This document shows, piece after piece, positions 4,427 to 42,357 of a stretch of 64,000 nucleotides of DNA. Source of the stretch: Escherichia phage fp01. Position 1 is the stretch's first letter. Each line of letters opens with the position of its first letter. Made by a program: the position numbers and the translations under genes. The notes beneath the pieces were generated by a model that was not told the origin of the DNA, did no database searches, and saw nothing but the letters and a program-made list of their open reading frames with translations. Location: the sequence record NC_048731.1, one strand, 5' to 3'.

Positions 4427-4513
4427 TGGTGCTGGGCACAGGATTCGAACCTGCAATGGGATTACTCCTCCTGATTACAAATCAGGTGCATTCAACCATT
4501 CTGCCAACCCAGC
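4427..4513 (-). tRNA. type II tRNA (long variable arm), anticodon loop TTTGTAA; identity uncertain
   Basis: acceptor GCTGGGT/GCCCAGC, T-arm GCAGG-TTCGAAT-CCTGT, variable arm GGA-GTAA-TCC, CCA encoded; loop position 34-36 reads TGT, which is atypical for a type II body. Confidence 0.55.
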
Positions 4514-4521
4514 AGAACCCG

Positions 4522-4686
4522 TTATTTCAACGGGATTTCTTTTTCAATAACAGGAGACTTATCAGTCATGACTGTCATTGCCATTTGTTGTAGAAATTCA
4601 AAGGTGAAGGCTACACGTTCTTCACCAATCTCTACTTCTACACGTTTCTTTTGTTTGTCGATCTTAACTTTTAGGTTATCAGCCAT
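4522..4686 (-). CDS. hypothetical small protein (54 aa)
   Basis: manual translation MADNLKVKIDKQKKRVEVEIGEERVAFTFEFLQQMAMTVMTDKSPVIEKEIPLK; below the ORF-track size cutoff. Confidence 0.3.
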   Translation of the reverse strand: MADNLKVKIDKQKKRVEVEIGEERVAFTFEFLQQMAMTVMTDKSPVIEKEIPLK

Positions 4687-4930
4687 TAGAGATTACAGTA
4701 CTGGTAGTTGGCAGTATTACAGATGAAGCAACAGTGTTTAAATGCTTTCTCCAGTCTAGGTTAAATTGTTTTCGAAAATCTTCATAAGGTTCTTCCGGAT
4801 AAAAGCTAAAACCTCCTTTTTCATCATTCAGGATAACAGAGCCGTCAGTTTGTTCGTATGCTCGGTATGTTTCTCCAATAATAATAACTCGTTTATCGGT
4901 ACTTTTATTACGAAATTCAAAAACGTGCAT
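4679..4930 (-). CDS. hypothetical protein
   Basis: ORF track 83 aa. Confidence 0.4.
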   Translation of the reverse strand: MHVFEFRNKSTDKRVIIIGETYRAYEQTDGSVILNDEKGGFSFYPEEPYEDFRKQFNLDWRKHLNTVASSVILPTTSTVISNG

Positions 4931-4946
4931 AACGTTTCCTTAAAGT

Positions 4947-5022
4947 TGGAGCGGCTAGAGGGAATCGAACCCTACTCAGCGAGGCTTGGAAGGCCTGCGA
5001 CACAACCCGTGTGCTTAACCGC
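4947..5022 (-). tRNA. tRNA-Gly (anticodon TCC)
   Basis: acceptor GCGGTTA/TAGCCGC, anticodon loop CTTCCAA, T-loop TTCGATT, CCA encoded. Confidence 0.65.
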
Positions 5023-5030
5023 TTATTGTT

Positions 5031-5108
5031 TGGCAGGGGATATTGGATTTGAACCAATGATCTCGACTTCAAAGGCCGAAGCTTTAGGCCAGGCTAAGCT
5101 AATCCCCA
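5031..5108 (-). tRNA. tRNA-Gln (anticodon TTG)
   Basis: anticodon stem TCGGC/GTCGA with loop CTTTGAA; T-arm ATTGG-TTCAAAT-CCAAT; position 1-72 unpaired; CCA encoded. Confidence 0.65.
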
Positions 5109-5114
5109 ACTGTT

Positions 5115-5190
5115 TGGCAGAAGGTAGTGGGTTCGAACCACTGATCGGGGTTTCAGAGACCCCAGCCTTAACCGACTTGGCTAACCTTCT
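5115..5190 (-). tRNA. tRNA-Gln (anticodon CTG)
   Basis: acceptor AGAAGGT/ACCTTCT, anticodon stem GGGGT/ACCCC with loop CTCTGAA, T-arm AGTGG-TTCGAAC-CCACT, CCA encoded. Confidence 0.65.
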
Positions 5191-5749
5191 TCTTAATACT
5201 TTTTGGATCTTTACCTGTTAAGGATTTATAACGTTTACGTAGTCCGTTATCAGATAACCCTAACTCTTTTGATGCTTTAACCCATGAATAGTTTATTACC
5301 CAATATTCTATTTGCTCTGCTGTAATATCAGGGCTACTCTTAGGTTTACAGTCAAAACAAGTTTTAGAGGAAGAATTTATTTGTTTATTACAGTAAGGGC
5401 ATTTATTACCACCTATTGTATGCCCCCTTTCAACTGTAGTTTTTATTCTATGCTCTTCCTTGGTCATGACCACCAGATTATCTAAGGAAAAGTTCAATTT
5501 ATTCCTATCTTTGTGATCCACTTCTAGTTCAGATTCTAGTGAAGGTAAATCTTTAAATACTCTAGCTAATAATCTATGCAATACAATAGAGACATTCTTA
5601 CCCTGCTCATAGAACGTTACAAACGGATACCCTGCACTACCTAAGTGATGTGTTAGTAATTTATTACTCTTAGTAGAGTAAACCTCCCCATATGGGGAGA
5701 TTAAGTATTTGGGATACTCCGGAATTACTTTGAAATTCTCTAATTTCAT
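5168..5749 (-). CDS. HNH homing endonuclease
   Basis: 193 aa; HNH motif VDHKDRNKLNFSLDNLVVMTKEEHRIK; Cys pairs CPYC/CFDC; 3' end overlaps the tRNA-Gln(CTG) gene by about 23 nt. Confidence 0.7.
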   Translation of the reverse strand: MKLENFKVIPEYPKYLISPYGEVYSTKSNKLLTHHLGSAGYPFVTFYEQGKNVSIVLHRLLARVFKDLPSLESELEVDHKDRNKLNFSLDNLVVMTKEEHRIKTTVERGHTIGGNKCPYCNKQINSSSKTCFDCKPKSSPDITAEQIEYWVINYSWVKASKELGLSDNGLRKRYKSLTGKDPKSIKKKVSQVG

Positions 5750-5750
5750 C

Positions 5751-5951
5751 TTACTCTACAGGAACCGTGGCGATTGGTTCTGGATCTTCTAAACGTTTGC
5801 CTTCATGATCTACTCGAATAACTCCGCATCCCTCGCAAATCACAACAGCACCGTAGCCTTCTTTAACTTCAGCTTCTGTAATCAAACCAGAAAGATCACC
5901 AGTATCTCTGCCCCACATATCAATGGAGCATTGTTTGCAGAAATCAGCCAT
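5751..5951 (-). CDS. hypothetical Cys-rich small protein
   Basis: ORF track 66 aa; CKQC ... CEGCG motifs. Confidence 0.45.
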   Translation of the reverse strand: MADFCKQCSIDMWGRDTGDLSGLITEAEVKEGYGAVVICEGCGVIRVDHEGKRLEDPEPIATVPVE

Positions 5952-6712: not shown

Positions 6713-6803
6713 TGGCGGAAGAGGAGAGATTTGAACTCTCAAGCCGTTTTACCAGTCAGCCGCTTTCCAAGCGGTTTTCGTCGCCAATTCGATTTGCTCT
6801 TCC
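6713..6803 (-). tRNA. tRNA-Ser (anticodon GGA), type II
   Basis: acceptor GGAAGAG/CTCTTCC, T-arm GAGAG-TTCAAAT-CTCTC, anticodon loop TTGGAAA, long variable arm, CCA encoded. Confidence 0.7.
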
Positions 6804-6915
6804 AATAATAAGATGATGCCTCTATCACACCAGGCAGTTACGCCTCGCTGGGATTCGAACCCATTAAAACAGCTCAACCGAGATAGTAGGTTTAATTTAC
6901 TCTGACCATCAAATT

Positions 6916-7000
6916 TGGTGGGGCTAGGGAGACTCGAACTCCCACGCATTTAAGCTACGGAATCTAAGGCCGTATTGTCTACCAGTTCCAGCATAGCCCC
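6916..7000 (-). tRNA. tRNA-Leu (anticodon TAG), type II
   Basis: acceptor GGGGCTA/TAGCCCC, anticodon stem TACGG/CCGTA with loop CTTAGAT, T-arm GGGAG-TTCGAGT-CTCCC, CCA encoded. Confidence 0.65.
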
Positions 7001-7005
7001 GAATT

Positions 7006-7079
7006 TGGTGGAGAAAGAGGGAGTTGAACCCTCGTCTTCTGCGTGCAAAGCAGATGTTCTACCATTAAACTATATCCCC
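7006..7079 (-). tRNA. tRNA-Ala (anticodon TGC)
   Basis: anticodon stem TCTGC/GCAGA with loop TTTGCAC, T-arm GAGGG-TTCAACT-CCCTC, CCA encoded. Confidence 0.65.
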
Positions 7080-7411
7080 AAATTCTTTAGTTTACTAAGG
7101 CTATTAGCTCGGCGTAACTACAGCACCTTCGCTTCGAGCGGAAGGAACTGCGTCATCTCGCAAACCCAATACACTATTCAGTTGCCACTGAATCTAGTGG
7201 ACTAATCTAGAACTTCTCCCGAATCGTAGGGATCGTGCTTTTTGGCAGCCAGTCCTAGGTCGAGCTAATACCTTAGTGAACTAAATTGATGGATACCAGA
7301 CTAATTTTGCTACGACGTTTATCCTGAGGATCTCTTTTTCGGTAGCTCTGCTAGTGTAGACGTCATACACCTGATATCTAGGCAGCTATTTTCGCATCAA
7401 TTTATATAAAT

Positions 7412-7440
7412 ATTATAACAAGAAATTAAGCATCAAGCAA
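7412..7440 (-). promoter_or_regulatory. T5-type early promoter (minus strand) firing into the ORF-free region 7080-7405
   Basis: plus attata 7412-7417, aagcaa 7435-7440, 17-bp spacer; flanking caatttatataaatatt block. Confidence 0.55.
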
Positions 7441-10095: not shown

Positions 10096-10178
10096 TGGCA
10101 AACCTACTAGGACTCGAACCTAGACCGTACGGTTTTGGAGACCGACATGCTGTCCAGTAACACTCTAGGAATGCAGGA
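10096..10178 (-). tRNA. tRNA-like gene, candidate anticodon CCA (Trp), weak acceptor stem
   Basis: T-arm CTAGG-TTCGAGT-CCTAG, anticodon stem CGGT/ACCG with loop CTCCAAA, CCA encoded; acceptor stem has two T-T mismatches. Confidence 0.4.
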
Positions 10179-11810: not shown

Positions 11811-11888
11811 TGGTGGCTCCCCGAGGATTCGAACCTACGTACCTTCCGGTTATGAGCCGGGTGCTCATACCATATGAGCTTGAGAACC
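11811..11888 (-). tRNA. tRNA, anticodon CAT (Met family)
   Basis: acceptor GGTTCTC/GGGAGCC, anticodon stem CCGG/CCGG with loop CTCATAA, T-loop TTCGAAT, CCA encoded; third CAT tRNA in the array. Confidence 0.6.
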
Positions 11889-21496: not shown

Positions 21497-21973
21497 TCAC
21501 ATCTCAGCCATTTCAGCTTCAGTAATAACTGTGTTACACAATGCATCTACGGCTTCATTACCACTAATACCAGAATGTCCTTTAACCTTAATAAAGGTGG
21601 GGTTAGTATTATGAAAGTTAATATACTGCTGTGTTAACTTAAATGCTTCTTGCCAAAGTTCTAGATTAAGAGGAACTTCACCATCTGCTTTCTTCCAGCC
21701 TTTCCTTTGCCAAGAAAACATCCAACTTTCCATGCCATTTTTGCAATAAGCAGAGTCAGTATAGATAGCAATTGGTCTATTATCTTTTTTAACAGACCAA
21801 CGTAGAGCTTCTACAATAGCTGTGAGTTCCATCTCATTATTTGTAGTTTTAGGATTATAACCAGATTTAGAACCTAAACGATCGTCGTTATCATCATAGA
21901 CAATAAAACCCCAAGAACCTGGACCTGGGTTAGACTTACAAGCACCATCTGTGTAAATGTGGAAAACGCTCAC
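21497..21973 (-). CDS. rnhA: ribonuclease HI
   Basis: 158 aa; IYTDGACKSNPGPGSWG N-terminal motif, internal NNEMEL (catalytic Glu) and TDS blocks, C-terminal HSGISGNEAVDAL. Confidence 0.85.
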   Translation of the reverse strand: MSVFHIYTDGACKSNPGPGSWGFIVYDDNDDRLGSKSGYNPKTTNNEMELTAIVEALRWSVKKDNRPIAIYTDSAYCKNGMESWMFSWQRKGWKKADGEVPLNLELWQEAFKLTQQYINFHNTNPTFIKVKGHSGISGNEAVDALCNTVITEAEMAEM

Positions 21974-22518
21974 TTATTAAGTTCCTCTACTGGTGGGTAA
22001 TAGTTGGTATAGAAATCTTCTATAACTGCTTCGCTACCATGAAGTGTTTTTCTTAGTTCATTAGCCTTTATGACCGCACTTTCTAGGTCTAAGTAGTCAA
22101 AAACACCCCCGTAAATATTTTTACCATTATTATCAATCACCTGTACTTGCCATTTCTGTAGTTGTTTGTTCCAGTGTACACCTAGATATCCAGATTTACT
22201 CGATGCGGTACAATTTCTATTATTAGACTGGCTTGTAGCTTCTCTTAGATTTATCCACCTATTATCTGACCTAATTCTATTTTTGTGGTCTATTAAATCA
22301 GGTATTGATCCTGTCATGTATAGAAAGGCTAACCTATGTGCTAAATAATCTATTTTATCTATCTTAATAGTTATATAGCCATCTTTTCTTAGGTATCCAG
22401 CGGGCGAACCTGCTTTTCCTCCCCTACCACGACTCACCTTATTAGTAAATATACCAGTATCTGGATCATAGATTAGTATTTCTTTTAATCTTTCTTGGCT
22501 AGGTAACTTTTTACTCAT
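21970..22518 (-). CDS. HNH endonuclease (homing-endonuclease-like)
   Basis: 182 aa; IDHKNRIRSDNRWINLREATSQSNNRN HNH motif. Confidence 0.75.
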   Translation of the reverse strand: MSKKLPSQERLKEILIYDPDTGIFTNKVSRGRGGKAGSPAGYLRKDGYITIKIDKIDYLAHRLAFLYMTGSIPDLIDHKNRIRSDNRWINLREATSQSNNRNCTASSKSGYLGVHWNKQLQKWQVQVIDNNGKNIYGGVFDYLDLESAVIKANELRKTLHGSEAVIEDFYTNYYPPVEELNK

Positions 22519-22894
22519 CTAACCATCCTATGTCTATACTAAGTAATGCTTTTATTCCTGTAATACCTGTACCATAAGTGTTATATCGAATAGCACTTCT
22601 GCTCTTTACTTCAAGTATATTTTCATACTCTGTATTTTCTAGAATTTCTGTAGATATACCTAAATATCCTAATTGATCTTCCTCGTCCCAACCCATATCT
22701 TCTAGAAGATTTAGACGTAACTCTACCTTCTCATCTCCATTTCCTACAGAGTAGTAGTCTTCTAAAGTCCTGAATTTAGAAGTGATAGAGTCTAGTATTA
22801 ATAATACCTGTTCCTTAGTAATAGTTTCTTTATCACCCTGCAAGTAATTGGAGTAATTCAGAAGGGCTTGTTCTAATTCAATTTCTTTACTCAT
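22511..22894 (-). CDS. hypothetical acidic protein
   Basis: ORF track 127 aa. Confidence 0.5.
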   Translation of the reverse strand: MSKEIELEQALLNYSNYLQGDKETITKEQVLLILDSITSKFRTLEDYYSVGNGDEKVELRLNLLEDMGWDEEDQLGYLGISTEILENTEYENILEVKSRSAIRYNTYGTGITGIKALLSIDIGWLDE

Positions 22895-22993
22895 TTTATT
22901 ATCCTTTTGTACTTATTGAGTATATTATATTTGAAATTGTACTCAATAAGCAAGTACAATTTCAAATATAATAGCCCCGAAGGGCTACTTAAG

Positions 22994-23833
22994 TTAAGAG
23001 GACATCTTAGCTTTAAGAGCTGGATGTGGATCATATCCTTCCAGCTTGAAAGACCAGGCCGCAGTATTATTCTCTAATAAATCATAAAGATCTACAAATT
23101 CTGGCATTACTAGAGTTGGCAAAGGACGTGGTTTACGTTTCAATTGCTCCTCTACTTGCTCTATATGATCACTATAAATATGTGTATCTCCACCACTAAA
23201 AATGAGATAACGAGGTTTTAATCCAGTCAGTTTTGCTAGGATATGTGTTAGTAAAGCATAACTAGCAATATTGAAAGGTAGACCTAGAAAACAGTCTACA
23301 GAACGTTGTGTCCATTTAAGATCTAAGTATCCATCATTACTTACGTAACATTGGAAACCATAGTGACATGGTGGTAATGCCATCTTATCCAGTTCAGCTA
23401 CGTTCCATGCAGATACTAGGTGTCTACGACCATGTGGATTATTCTTGAGACCCTCAATGAGTTCTAGGATCTGATCTCGTCCACCAAAGTTGCGCCATTG
23501 TTTACCATATACTGGCCCCAGATTACCTCTGTCATAACCCATGCTTATGGCTTGGTCTTCATAATTTGGAGTCCAGATAGTCCACTGTCCTTCGTCACGC
23601 CCAAATGTGAATACTCGTAGATCATGGAGATTTGTAGATCCAGATAAAAACCATAGGAGTTCTCCAACTACCGATTTCCAAGCTAGACGTTTAGTGGTTA
23701 CAGCTGGAAATCCTTCACGTAGGTCGAACTTAGCATAGGAATCGAAAATCGAAACTGTGCCTGTCCCCGTACGATCGTTACGTGGTTCACCTAGTAAAAT
23801 TACATCTGTTAGAATTTTTAAATATTGTTGCAT
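22994..23833 (-). CDS. thyA: thymidylate synthase
   Basis: 279 aa; ...RTGTGT..., LPPCH active-site Cys context, DLKWTQRSVDCFLGLPFNIASYALLTHILA conserved blocks. Confidence 0.95.
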   Translation of the reverse strand: MQQYLKILTDVILLGEPRNDRTGTGTVSIFDSYAKFDLREGFPAVTTKRLAWKSVVGELLWFLSGSTNLHDLRVFTFGRDEGQWTIWTPNYEDQAISMGYDRGNLGPVYGKQWRNFGGRDQILELIEGLKNNPHGRRHLVSAWNVAELDKMALPPCHYGFQCYVSNDGYLDLKWTQRSVDCFLGLPFNIASYALLTHILAKLTGLKPRYLIFSGGDTHIYSDHIEQVEEQLKRKPRPLPTLVMPEFVDLYDLLENNTAAWSFKLEGYDPHPALKAKMSS

Positions 23834-39823: not shown

Positions 39824-40114
39824 ATGAACAAGCAAGAAATTATCTCCGCATGTGAAGCTCATAACGAGTTCTATCTTCATTACGAGAAATTACGCCAAAA
39901 AGGTACTACGTACCTTCAAGGTACTATGGATTTTTCTGATAAGTACCTTAGTAAACGATTTGCCCAGGAGCGTATTCGTCAACCAAAAGACGACGAGATT
40001 CTAGTATTTAGTCGTACTAATGATAGCTTCCGTTTTATTCCTGTAAATAAGGTGAAACGTATTACTTCATTGTCTAGTGAACTCGATAGAGCTACGCCAG
40101 TAGGCAAAAAATAA
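39824..40114 (+). CDS. hypothetical protein
   Basis: ORF track 96 aa; AAGGAG SD upstream. Confidence 0.45.
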   Translation: MNKQEIISACEAHNEFYLHYEKLRQKGTTYLQGTMDFSDKYLSKRFAQERIRQPKDDEILVFSRTNDSFRFIPVNKVKRITSLSSELDRATPVGKK

Positions 40115-40161
40115 TAAAGAAAAGGAGAGCTTCGGCTCTCCTTTGTTGTATATGGGTTATA

Positions 40162-40827
40162 GTGAAAAAGTTAACAGCAAAGCAAATAAATAAAGAATTA
40201 GAGCCGCGAGGTTTTAGTATAGTAAGTGAGTGGATTAATATAAGGACACCCGCCATATTTAAGTGCTCAAAAGGTCACCAATGGAGGGCATACCTAAACA
40301 ACATAAGAAAAGGTAGTGGTTGTCCACACTGTAGTAATAAAGCTAAGCTTACTATAGAGCAAATAAATCAACAATTAGCCAATAGAGGTATAAAACTTGT
40401 ATCCACGTATATCAATGCCCATAGTCAAGCAGTATTCGAGTGCGAAGAAGGACATAGGTGGACTAGTAGCGTGGATAAGATTAAAAATGCAGGAAGATCT
40501 TGTCCTATCTGTATAGCTACAAGCTATTTGTATATATTTTATAGCCAGCAGCTTGGAACAAAAATAGGAACATCTAAAAGTCCAGAGAGAAGACTTTTAG
40601 AGATCAAAAAAGATTCTAATCTAGAGGACTTGAGTGCATATGGAGTATACTCTTGTGAGGGGTCAGCATATAATCTAGAAAATAAAGCACATAGATTCTT
40701 TAGTGCTACACAGATATTTACAGAATCAATATTTGACGGTTCTACTGAGTTTTTCAATATTCAACCAGAGGAGGCAGAGGAATATCTCCTAAGTCAGGGA
40801 GCAATAAAATGTCAGGAGATAATGTAA
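40162..40827 (+). CDS. putative endonuclease with tandem zinc-ribbon repeats and GIY-YIG-like segment (homing-endonuclease-like)
   Basis: 221 aa; duplicated CSKGHQW...CPHC / CEEGHRW...CPIC modules, then YLYIFYSQQLGTKIGTSKSPERRLLEI; GTG start in ORF track. Confidence 0.45.
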   Translation: MKKLTAKQINKELEPRGFSIVSEWINIRTPAIFKCSKGHQWRAYLNNIRKGSGCPHCSNKAKLTIEQINQQLANRGIKLVSTYINAHSQAVFECEEGHRWTSSVDKIKNAGRSCPICIATSYLYIFYSQQLGTKIGTSKSPERRLLEIKKDSNLEDLSAYGVYSCEGSAYNLENKAHRFFSATQIFTESIFDGSTEFFNIQPEEAEEYLLSQGAIKCQEIM

Positions 40828-41120
40828 ATCAGGATTATGTTGGACATGTAGATGATCAGTCCATAGTTATCTGGGAAAGAGAAGATGGCCAACAGGTTAG
40901 GCTAACTGTATCTGAGTTTAGGGGGAATCTATACTTAGGAATTAGGTACTGGCTCCAAGATATAGAAGGTGAATGGTTTCCAACAAAAAGTGGATTCAGT
41001 ATGCCCTACACTCTAGAAACAACATCTCATTTATTTAAGGCATTTACTAAAATATTATCTAATAGTGAGGTTTTATTAGAAGTAGAAAAAGAAGCTAAAC
41101 GCCTGGCGGAAAAAGAATAA
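40809..41120 (+). CDS. PC4/Sub1-like ssDNA-binding domain protein
   Basis: 103 aa; QVRLTVSEFRGNLYLGIRYW...WFPTKSGFSMP resembles PC4-family domains. Confidence 0.45.
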   Translation: MSGDNVNQDYVGHVDDQSIVIWEREDGQQVRLTVSEFRGNLYLGIRYWLQDIEGEWFPTKSGFSMPYTLETTSHLFKAFTKILSNSEVLLEVEKEAKRLAEKE

Positions 41121-41126
41121 ATGTAT

Positions 41127-41155
41127 TTGCTTTCAACTCAGTTTTGTTATATAAT
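41127..41155 (+). promoter_or_regulatory. T5-type early promoter (plus strand) for ligase A
   Basis: TTGCTT 41127-41132, TATAAT 41150-41155; downstream ATTTATATAAATTGATGAGAG block. Confidence 0.55.
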
Positions 41156-41186
41156 ATTTATATAAATTGATGAGAGATACAAATAA

Positions 41187-42301: not shown

Positions 42302-42330
42302 TTGCTAAATGCTTAAATACTTGCTATAAT
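42302..42330 (+). promoter_or_regulatory. T5-type early promoter (plus strand) in the ligase A/B spacer
   Basis: TTGCTA 42302-42307, TATAAT 42325-42330; downstream ATTTATATAAATTGATAAGGAAG block. Confidence 0.55.
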
Positions 42331-42357
42331 ATTTATATAAATTGATAAGGAAGAAAT

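Follow-up and report, generated by a model that had tools for sequence, protein, structure and literature searches.

The HNH endonuclease gene located in the tRNA cluster of Escherichia phage fp01 (positions 5168–5749, minus strand) is, by the sequence comparisons described below, the ortholog of hegD of phage T5, which encodes F-TflII. Together with the tRNA-Gln(CUG) gene into which it extends, this gene probably forms a selfish mobile unit that replaces the resident, approximately 59%-identical tRNA allele of endonuclease-free phages and homes by nicking the DNA of a rival phage. Since the gene corresponds to the known F-TflII of T5 at its known position, the finding itself is already known, and both the enzyme and its overlap with a tRNA gene are on record. 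The analysis was carried out on 64,000 nucleotides of the sequence record NC_048731.1, hereafter called the window.

The window region was compared with phage sequences and 515 phage records were matched, most of them T5-like phages of Escherichia and Salmonella. The identity was 97.6% with Citrobacter phage Cit2 and 92.9% with phage T5, and the window is thus assigned to a T5-like phage (Tequintavirus) on the basis of its similarity to these genomes. A total of 23 tRNA genes were found in the window using ARAGORN, all of them on the minus strand.

The original prediction of an HNH open reading frame at this locus was borne out, on the minus strand. The Pfam search revealed HNH_3 (E 1.1e-9; 38.2 bits, cut-off 24.8) and, at the N-terminus, NUMOD4 (E 1.2e-6; 29 bits, cut-off 23.4), and the protein was also matched by PHROG 59 'HNH endonuclease' (E 2e-31). 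The structure of I-HmuI (1U3E) was aligned to residues 14–109 with an E-value of 3.5e-10, including the D-H..N..N core. The segment DHKDRNKLNFSLDNLVVMTKEEH of the window protein aligns with VDHKDGNKDNNLSTNL of I-HmuI, which contains the catalytic His and Asn motif, and according to this alignment the motif is intact. I-HmuI of Bacillus phage SPO1 is likewise a member of HNH_3 (PMC5714182), and the NUMOD4-type N-terminal region and the HNH core of both proteins can be aligned. However, the I-HmuI gene resides in a group I intron, whereas the window gene is free-standing, and its product has a CxxC..CxxC segment and another type of C-terminal module. It is located in neither an intron nor an intein and lies between the stop codon of a 66-aa ORF and the tRNA gene.

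The window protein and T5 HegD are of equal length and identical in 190 of 193 residues (95.1% identity at the nucleotide level). The synteny is also kept, with a homolog of T5.062 on one side of the gene and tRNA-Gln2 on the other, and with the same tRNA overlap. In the curated T5 record, hegD (T5.061) is annotated as 'H-N-H endonuclease F-TflII'. According to papers citing Akulenko et al. 2004, F-TflI, II and IV were reported as site-specific endonucleases, and F-TflII is described as site-specific and making single-strand breaks (Akulenko 2004, as cited in PMC6105707, PMC10644984 and PMC2330249). The citing papers also describe the sites of the F-Tfl single-strand breaks as asymmetric and name the F-Tfl genes as the chief source of local differences among T5-like genomes. 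Nicking activity is predicted for the window protein from its orthology to F-TflII, to which it is 98% identical.

The tRNA-Gln(CUG) gene scored 58.0 bits with the Rfam tRNA model, the gathering score being 29, and was about as good as the endonuclease-free alleles of this gene (58.5–60 bits). As predicted, the endonuclease gene ends approximately 23 nt inside it; the overlap is exactly 23 nt. The 5′ acceptor strand and D-arm of the tRNA (AGAAGGTTAGCCAAGTCGGTTAA) encode the endonuclease tail (K)KVSQVG and its TAA stop codon, and the 5′ end of the tRNA, i.e., the RNase P site, falls inside codon K187. An equal overlap of 23 nt is annotated in T5 and was also found in KS_S14 and Cit2, and the orthologous F-TflII genes of T5 and the window end with the same C-terminal tail, VSQVG followed by the stop codon. 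Unlike the intact gene of the window, the T5 copy of tRNA-Gln(CUG) is degenerate (39.1 bits, a non-cloverleaf fold, annotated as the pseudogene tRNAQ2(CUG)). The flanking backgrounds also differ, and T5 tRNA-Gly1 and the hegC/tRNA-Ser2 pair are absent from the window. A false call of tRNA-Gln(CUG) from coding sequence was considered and rejected, given the score of 58 bits, the cloverleaf, and the persistence of the tRNA where the endonuclease is deleted. The tRNA gene is undamaged by the overlap and should therefore be retained in the annotation as a real gene. The coordinates of the locus and of the other features are listed in Table 1.

Table 1. Features of the F-TflII locus and of the two other endonuclease-type loci in the window.
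Feature	Position	Strand	Evidence
T5-type early promoter −10 and leader 25-mer, at the T5 P13b position; closest promoter on the upstream side of the endonuclease	7393..7417	-	T5/BF23 promoter annotation
66-aa CxxC..CxxC ORF, homolog of T5.062 / ORF trn 2.15, phrog_2210, left flank of the endonuclease	5751..5951	-	sequence
AAGATCCA, 8-nt direct repeat of deletion class 1, copy on the upstream side	5781..5788	-	
AAGATCCA, copy of this repeat on the downstream side, at a distance of 577 bp	5204..5211	-	
hegD / F-TflII ortholog, free-standing I-HmuI-like HNH nicking homing endonuclease (activity predicted by orthology), 193 aa	5168..5749	-	ATG start; Pfam, PHROG, 1U3E
Overlap of endonuclease and tRNA, exactly 23 nt	5168..5190	-	sequence
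tRNA-Gln(CUG) (Gln2), endonuclease-linked allele, intact cloverleaf	5115..5190	-	ARAGORN; Rfam 58.0 bits; minimum-free-energy fold
tRNA-Gln(UUG) (Gln1), T5-type allele	5031..5108	-	ARAGORN
T5 promoter/leader 25-mer, position of T5 P11	4189..4213	-	
Gene 2, second free-standing HNH endonuclease gene, HNH_3, phrog_99	21970..22518	-	Pfam HNH_3 E 8.4e-14
Variable block, 953 bp: gene 2 and 127-aa ORF 22511–22894 (phrog_26840), between rnhA and thyA	21968..22920	-	
Gene 3, two treble-clef zinc fingers (DUF4379, CapR) and T5orf172/MUG113 (GIY-YIG-like) domain, putative endonuclease	40162..40827	+	Pfam; PHROG
Variable block with gene 3, 779 bp	40045..40823	+	
PC4-like regulator gene just downstream of gene 3, divergent allele	40809..41120	+	

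The promoter scan did not reveal a private promoter between the P13b-type 25-mer and the start of the endonuclease gene, where promoter-like hits were below the shuffle expectation. The conserved 25-mers at the P13b and P11 positions thus place the endonuclease gene within one long tRNA/mRNA transcript. As the 5′ end of the tRNA lies inside codon K187, RNase P maturation of the tRNA would take away the stop codon of the endonuclease. For T4 SegB, it was proposed that tRNA processing truncates the mRNA of the homing endonuclease (Brok-Volchanskaya et al. 2008; PMC2330249), and the same source reports, by personal communication, a proposal of similar down-regulation for F-TflI/II (PMC2330249). 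By analogy, we infer that tRNA processing may limit the expression of F-TflII. With no promoter of its own and with the stop codon lost at tRNA maturation, the endonuclease would probably be expressed at a low level. Its ATG is preceded by the TAA of the 66-aa ORF with 1 nt between them (TAAGATG), and this arrangement could allow translational coupling.

The junctions and alleles of the locus were examined by anchored manual comparison. A full-length F-TflII ortholog was found in 17 records (about 13 phages) out of approximately 515 with the locus. A clean empty site was found in phage 5 (AJ604531), where the homolog of the 66-aa ORF is followed by 9 nt and then by tRNA-Gln2. The 66-aa ORF protein of the window is identical to that of phage 5, in which this ORF directly adjoins the tRNA, and the left junction of the cassette is located exactly at the stop codon of this ORF. 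In BF23 and BB1, the slot of the endonuclease contains a non-nuclease 78-aa ORF (trn 2.16*), and the BB1 tRNAs at this place differ as well.

The pair of tRNA-Gln genes of the window differs strongly from that of phage 5/BF23, with an identity of 58.8% for Gln2 (CUG) and 60.8% for Gln1. The window-type pair was found in 30 records, including all 17 carriers of the endonuclease, and the endonuclease was found in none of the other approximately 485 records, i.e., those without this pair. In approximately 86 further records (e.g., IrmaTschudi), the window-type Gln1 occurs alongside a BF23-like Gln2. These mixed haplotypes locate a boundary of recombination to the CCA end of Gln2. Gln1 co-varies with the cassette in some backgrounds, yet it also occurs alone in the approximately 86 records. 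The linkage of alleles in carriers and non-carriers, taken together with the mixed records, thus defines the minimal mobile unit as the endonuclease plus tRNA-Gln(CUG), at about 5115–5750. This interval coincides with the one singled out in the original prediction. It should also be noted that this linkage is in part a necessary consequence of the physical overlap between the endonuclease gene and the tRNA gene. Simple insertion of the endonuclease into or beside a resident tRNA, as had been supposed, did not hold: the overlapped tRNA belongs to the cassette and replaces an allele with approximately 59% identity.

The flanks of the cassette were also compared. The upstream flank of the window is 99.6% identical to that of the endonuclease-free phage 5 and 93.8% to that of T5, and the upstream flank of T5 is 97.8% identical to that of the endonuclease-free BF23. 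The downstream flank of the window is 97.0% identical to that of the endonuclease-free BB1; that of the carrier KS_S14 is 97% identical to BF23 and 69.5% to the window. The similarity of the flanks is therefore incongruent with the presence of the endonuclease, which means that one cassette is found in several backgrounds, and for each of them there is a nearly identical counterpart with an empty site.

Of the 30 records in which the linked tRNA allele occurs, 13 lack the endonuclease. Deletions were classified in eight of the endonuclease-less phages with this allele, and three classes were revealed, with every junction located at a short repeat (AAGATCCA, AGCCAA or GAAGAA). In the first class (WP85, FFH1, Elw and Es2), the junction is AAGATCCA and the 66-aa ORF continues in frame into the last 12 endonuclease codons (..LEDP/KSIKKKVSQVG and stop). 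In the second class (DT57C and Gostya9; AGCCAA), the 5′ acceptor strand of the tRNA is lost, with a score of 39.8 bits in DT57C, and in the third (APCEc03; GAAGAA) the tRNA is intact. The complete C-terminus of the 66-aa ORF is common to carriers and BF23-type non-carriers, so the deletions are derived and not ancestral states. Judging by these junctions, the endonuclease has been lost three times independently, and the linked tRNA allele was kept.

The mechanism that would account for these data is as follows. In a mixed infection, the enzyme would nick the DNA of the rival phage in or next to the resident tRNA-Gln allele, and recombinational repair would copy the endonuclease and the linked tRNA allele from the carrier genome. 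The divergent tRNA allele of the carrier would lack the target site, and the carrier would thereby be immune. Once a lineage is immune, the endonuclease would become dispensable and could be repeatedly lost by microhomology deletion, with the tRNA allele staying behind as a footprint. No F-Tfl cleavage site is annotated in the tRNA-region records of BF23 or phage 5, and the proposal that the enzyme targets the resident tRNA-Gln allele therefore rests on linkage and on the analogy with T4 SegB. The tRNA gene is a plausible target of F-TflII that fits the cassette data.

According to the description of SegB (PMC2330249), the enzyme prefers a site inside one of the tRNA genes of the rival phage, and the cut leads to preferential inheritance of the tRNA region. 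Like the window gene, segB is located inside a phage tRNA cluster, its end abuts a tRNA and truncation of its mRNA was proposed (PMC2330249). Unlike F-TflII, an HNH protein that nicks DNA, SegB has a GIY-YIG fold and makes double-strand cuts. The available text of the SegB description (PMC2330249) also makes no mention of a linked replacement tRNA allele. [quoted passage not shown]

It is unlikely that the gene is kept for the benefit of the phage and not by homing alone, with nicks excluding the markers of competitors or reshuffling and amplifying anti-defence tRNAs; this reading is compatible with homing and does not exclude it. For the endonuclease, dN/dS was 0.017–0.052 at a dS of 0.13–0.36 among four carriers, which indicates strong purifying selection on the F-TflII protein. 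A ratio this low means stronger constraint than would be expected if the gene were purely parasitic, and it may be a sign that the gene benefits the phage. The tRNAs of T5-like phages are reported as anti-defence factors, xenologous tRNA alleles cluster beside nuclease genes, and the reported amplification of tRNA-Tyr by SegB against Septu (PMC13096335) offers a precedent. However, the gene is rare (17 of approximately 515 records) and was deleted at least three times independently in lineages that persist. In addition, neither duplication nor amplification of the locus was seen in the window or in the examined relatives, and no defence system targeting tRNA-Gln was linked to the gene here.

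The overlap with a tRNA is not restricted to this locus. In T5, BF23 and phage 5, all long ORFs overlapping tRNA 5′ ends (5/5) belong to nuclease families of two unrelated superfamilies. T5 hegC (HNH_3) extends 14 nt into tRNA-Ser2 and hegB of phage 5 extends 8 nt into tRNA-Pro; in BF23, ORF trn 2.12.1 extends 10 nt into tRNA-Lys and ORF trn 2.8 extends 24 nt into tRNA-Asn. Family scans classified both BF23 ORFs as T5orf172/MUG113 proteins. The suggestion that the ORF/tRNA overlaps of BF23 are unspecific to endonuclease genes was accordingly rejected, both long overlapping ORFs being T5orf172 proteins. In F-TflI (hegC) and F-TflIII (hegB) of T5 and phage 5, as in F-TflII, the 3′ end of an HNH_3 ORF lies in a tRNA and the linked alleles are divergent (72% and 59%). 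The C-terminal module of these genes is shared with the F-TflII gene at 75–83% nucleotide identity. They differ from it in their partners, tRNA-Ser2 and tRNA-Pro, and both are absent from the window.

The overlapped tRNAs are 59–77% identical to the alleles of genomes without the given nuclease gene, and most other tRNAs are 93–100% identical. When the window was compared with BF23, divergent tRNAs were found in three of three cases where the nuclease gene differs and in four of the 18 others (Fisher p = 0.026). The four divergent tRNAs without a differential nuclease gene are Thr, Gln1, Leu1 and Trp, so that a resident endonuclease is not required for an allele to be replaced or for the replacement to persist.

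These data bear on the possibility that the overlap reflects incidental packing, in which case the target would lie elsewhere (in the 66-aa ORF, an intergenic region or a distant locus) and the tRNA allele would hitch-hike from the donor. This is quite unlikely. The T5-type tRNA region is very compact, short non-nuclease ORFs of BF23 also enter tRNAs (27-aa into tRNA-Met and 63-aa into tRNA-Cys), and some tRNAs are divergent with no nuclease gene nearby. However, all five long overlapping ORFs are of nuclease families and the tRNA allele that accompanies each of them is divergent, whereas tRNA-Met and tRNA-Cys, overlapped by short ORFs only, are 99–100% identical between genomes. In addition, SegB, in an analogous position in T4, is reported to cut in a tRNA gene (PMC2330249).

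A wider interpretation, which we hold to be rather improbable, would make the HNH nickase and the xenologous tRNA a drive for tRNA-allele replacement. HNH and T5orf172 nucleases would then swap, diversify or amplify anti-defence tRNAs, with RNase P acting as governor. Genes of the HNH and T5orf172 types, although they belong to unrelated superfamilies, converge on ending inside tRNA 5′ ends, and this convergence forms part of the drive interpretation. If this is true, what the 2026 study reports for SegB would apply more widely, to nicking endonucleases as well as to Demerecviridae.

It is highly improbable that ordinary homologous recombination in conserved flanking sequence, with the 66-aa ORF at one end and tRNA or ORF sequence at the other, is enough to spread the cassette passively, with the nuclease uninvolved or inactive here: T5-like genomes are highly mosaic, the same slot holds a non-nuclease ORF in BF23 and BB1, and the incongruence of the flanks reveals recombination and not its cause, but this reading is opposed by the intact catalytic motif under strong purifying selection, by the 98% identity to F-TflII, reported as a site-specific nickase (Akulenko 2004, via citing papers), and by the repeated location of nuclease genes beside replaced tRNA alleles.

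Two other genes of the window are independent free-standing cassettes of the endonuclease type and of the same general kind as the F-TflII unit. The second HNH gene was found where it had been predicted, between rnhA (21497–21973) and the thyA block, with the 127-aa ORF lying between it and thyA (22994–23833). Its protein has 100% amino acid identity in HMD-P3 and at least 80% in about 30 records, and the gene 2 family comprises 2968 phage records. The variable block of gene 2 is present in 31 of 442 records; 64 bp are found in its place in DT571/2, and about 300 bp with another small ORF in S130.

The third gene lies between replication genes and the ligase gene, in agreement with the prediction of a zinc-finger/GIY-YIG-like gene there, and the PC4-like gene is located between it and the ligase. 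The Pfam matches were to MUG113 (38.6 bits; cut-off 22.3) and T5orf172 (27.8 bits; cut-off 20), the zinc-finger matches were also above the cut-off, and phrog_681 'endonuclease' matched with an E-value of 3.4e-48. The T5orf172 and MUG113 families presumably belong to the GIY-YIG clan of Pfam. To our knowledge, nuclease activity has so far been demonstrated for no member of the T5orf172/MUG113 family, and that of gene 3 is putative, predicted from family membership. Gene 3 shares its domain family and its polymorphic occurrence with the BF23 ORFs trn 2.12.1 and 2.8; unlike these ORFs, which overlap tRNAs, it has two N-terminal treble-clef zinc fingers and is located in the replication module, not in the tRNA cluster. 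About 12 records contain it at above 60% amino acid identity, and diverged paralogs occur at other genome positions. The block with gene 3 is present in 10 of 440 records, with 129 bp in its place in Cit2 and IME178. The PC4-like gene is approximately 71% identical to those of Cit2 and HMD-P3, and the next gene is 97% identical.

The comparison with relatives lacking the insertions, by which the insertion sites were to be defined, revealed clean empty-site alleles for all three genes. None of them is universally present: they are carried by 17 of 515, about 31 of 442 and 10 of 440 records, respectively. Different subsets occur among close relatives, Cit2 having gene 1 without gene 3 and HMD-P3 having gene 2 only, and in the closest relatives each of the three genes occurs independently of the others. 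A local tblastn with the three proteins revealed no further paralogs in the window, and no other large window-specific or endonuclease-like insertion was found relative to HMD-P3, so that the predicted count of three insertions is reasonable. The view of these genes as three free-standing homing endonucleases, putative in the case of gene 3, is supported by their nuclease families, their rarity and their clean empty sites.

The results leave the knowledge of the F-TflII enzyme itself unchanged, and the additions of this comparison are incremental. They are the inclusion of the tRNA in the mobile unit, the footprints of three independent deletions, the strong selection on the F-TflII protein and the association of nuclease genes of two superfamilies with replaced tRNA alleles. 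For annotation, the open reading frame can confidently be called an F-TflII-type HNH homing endonuclease, hegD. The locus at 5115–5749 is a clean natural case of the life cycle of a homing endonuclease that can be read from public T5-like genomes, from invasion with a linked immune allele through upkeep under selection to repeated loss by deletion. That replaced tRNA alleles go together with nuclease genes also bears on the reshuffling of the phage tRNA repertoires that act against host defences.

The 3′ end of hegD, the HNH endonuclease gene that overlaps tRNA-Gln(CUG), contains a C-terminal module of about 133 nt. Its DNA identity to the corresponding 3′ regions of further endonuclease genes in the T5 family, namely hegA/F-TflIV (BF23 and T5), hegB/F-TflIII (phage 5) and many genes annotated as "homing endonuclease", was 75–83%. 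The remainder of hegD was not alignable to these genes. The sequence comparison suggests that these genes share, or have exchanged, a C-terminal DNA-binding module.

The tRNA linked to the endonuclease is intact in most other carriers, whereas the T5 copy is degenerate: compared with the window, pairing in the anticodon stem and T stem is gone, and the sequence scores 39 bits and is annotated as a pseudogene. Among endonuclease carriers, the reference phage T5 is the atypical one with respect to the state of this tRNA.

In BF23, two ORFs annotated as hypothetical, ORF trn 2.12.1 and ORF trn 2.8, encode proteins with a T5orf172/MUG113 (GIY-YIG-like) domain, and their 3′ ends run into tRNA-Lys and tRNA-Asn, respectively. 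The window lacks both ORFs, and its tRNA-Lys and tRNA-Asn are divergent from the BF23 alleles (77% and 62% identity). Identity to the BF23 counterparts also fell within the range of 53–64% for tRNA-Thr, tRNA-Leu and tRNA-Trp, which have no adjoining nuclease gene in either the window or BF23. By analogy with the deletion classes at tRNA-Gln, where loss of hegD left the linked tRNA allele behind, these three tRNAs may mark sites from which an endonuclease gene has disappeared.

Immediately downstream of the third endonuclease-type gene (zinc fingers and T5orf172/MUG113 domain) is a gene for a PC4-like transcriptional regulator, whose identity to its counterparts in the relatives Cit2 and HMD-P3 was about 71%, versus 97% for the adjacent ligase gene. 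As in the tRNA-Gln case, a nuclease gene is thus accompanied by a divergent allele of its neighbor.

Positions of the features analyzed in the window and in related phages
Feature	Record	Position	Strand
25-mer copies	window	1864, 4189, 7393, 10770, 17053, 17893	−
tRNA-Thr	window	4427–4513	
tRNA-like element	window	4950–5023	−
tRNA-Gln(CUG)	window	5115–5190	−
hegD C-terminal module	window	5200–5333	
tRNA-Leu	window	6916–7000	
tRNA-Trp	window	10096–10172	
tRNA adjoining tRNA-Ser(gct)	window	11814–11888	−
PC4-like gene	window	40809–41120	+
25-mer copies	window	41150–41174, 42325–42349	+
tRNA-Gln(CUG)	T5	2100–2175	
ORF trn 2.12.1	BF23 (AJ604530)	4478–4951	
ORF trn 2.8	BF23 (AJ604530)	6749–7267	

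An Rfam search found a tRNA (40.3 bits) next to tRNA-Ser(gct), at the position of the T5 tRNA-Ile2(CAU); it was not called by ARAGORN, and thus the window contains at least 24 tRNA genes. The position of tRNA-Gly1 of T5 and BF23 is occupied in the window by a tRNA-like element whose D-arm is unusually long and whose anticodon loop is CUUCCAA (Gly, UCC). ARAGORN made no call for this element, and its Rfam score of 30.9 bits was below the threshold (best model: tRNA-Sec). BB1 contains an identical, unannotated sequence. Several T5-like genomes in public records, including MG065692 and MG065642, name Campylobacter or Listeria as the phage host, which is probably an error or the result of contamination.

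A conserved 25-mer, TATAATATTTATATAAATTGATGAG, was found in eight copies in the window (up to four mismatches), all oriented as the local genes. These sites coincide in position with the early promoters annotated in T5 (−10 box and leader), and the 25-mer helps to set the limits of transcription units.
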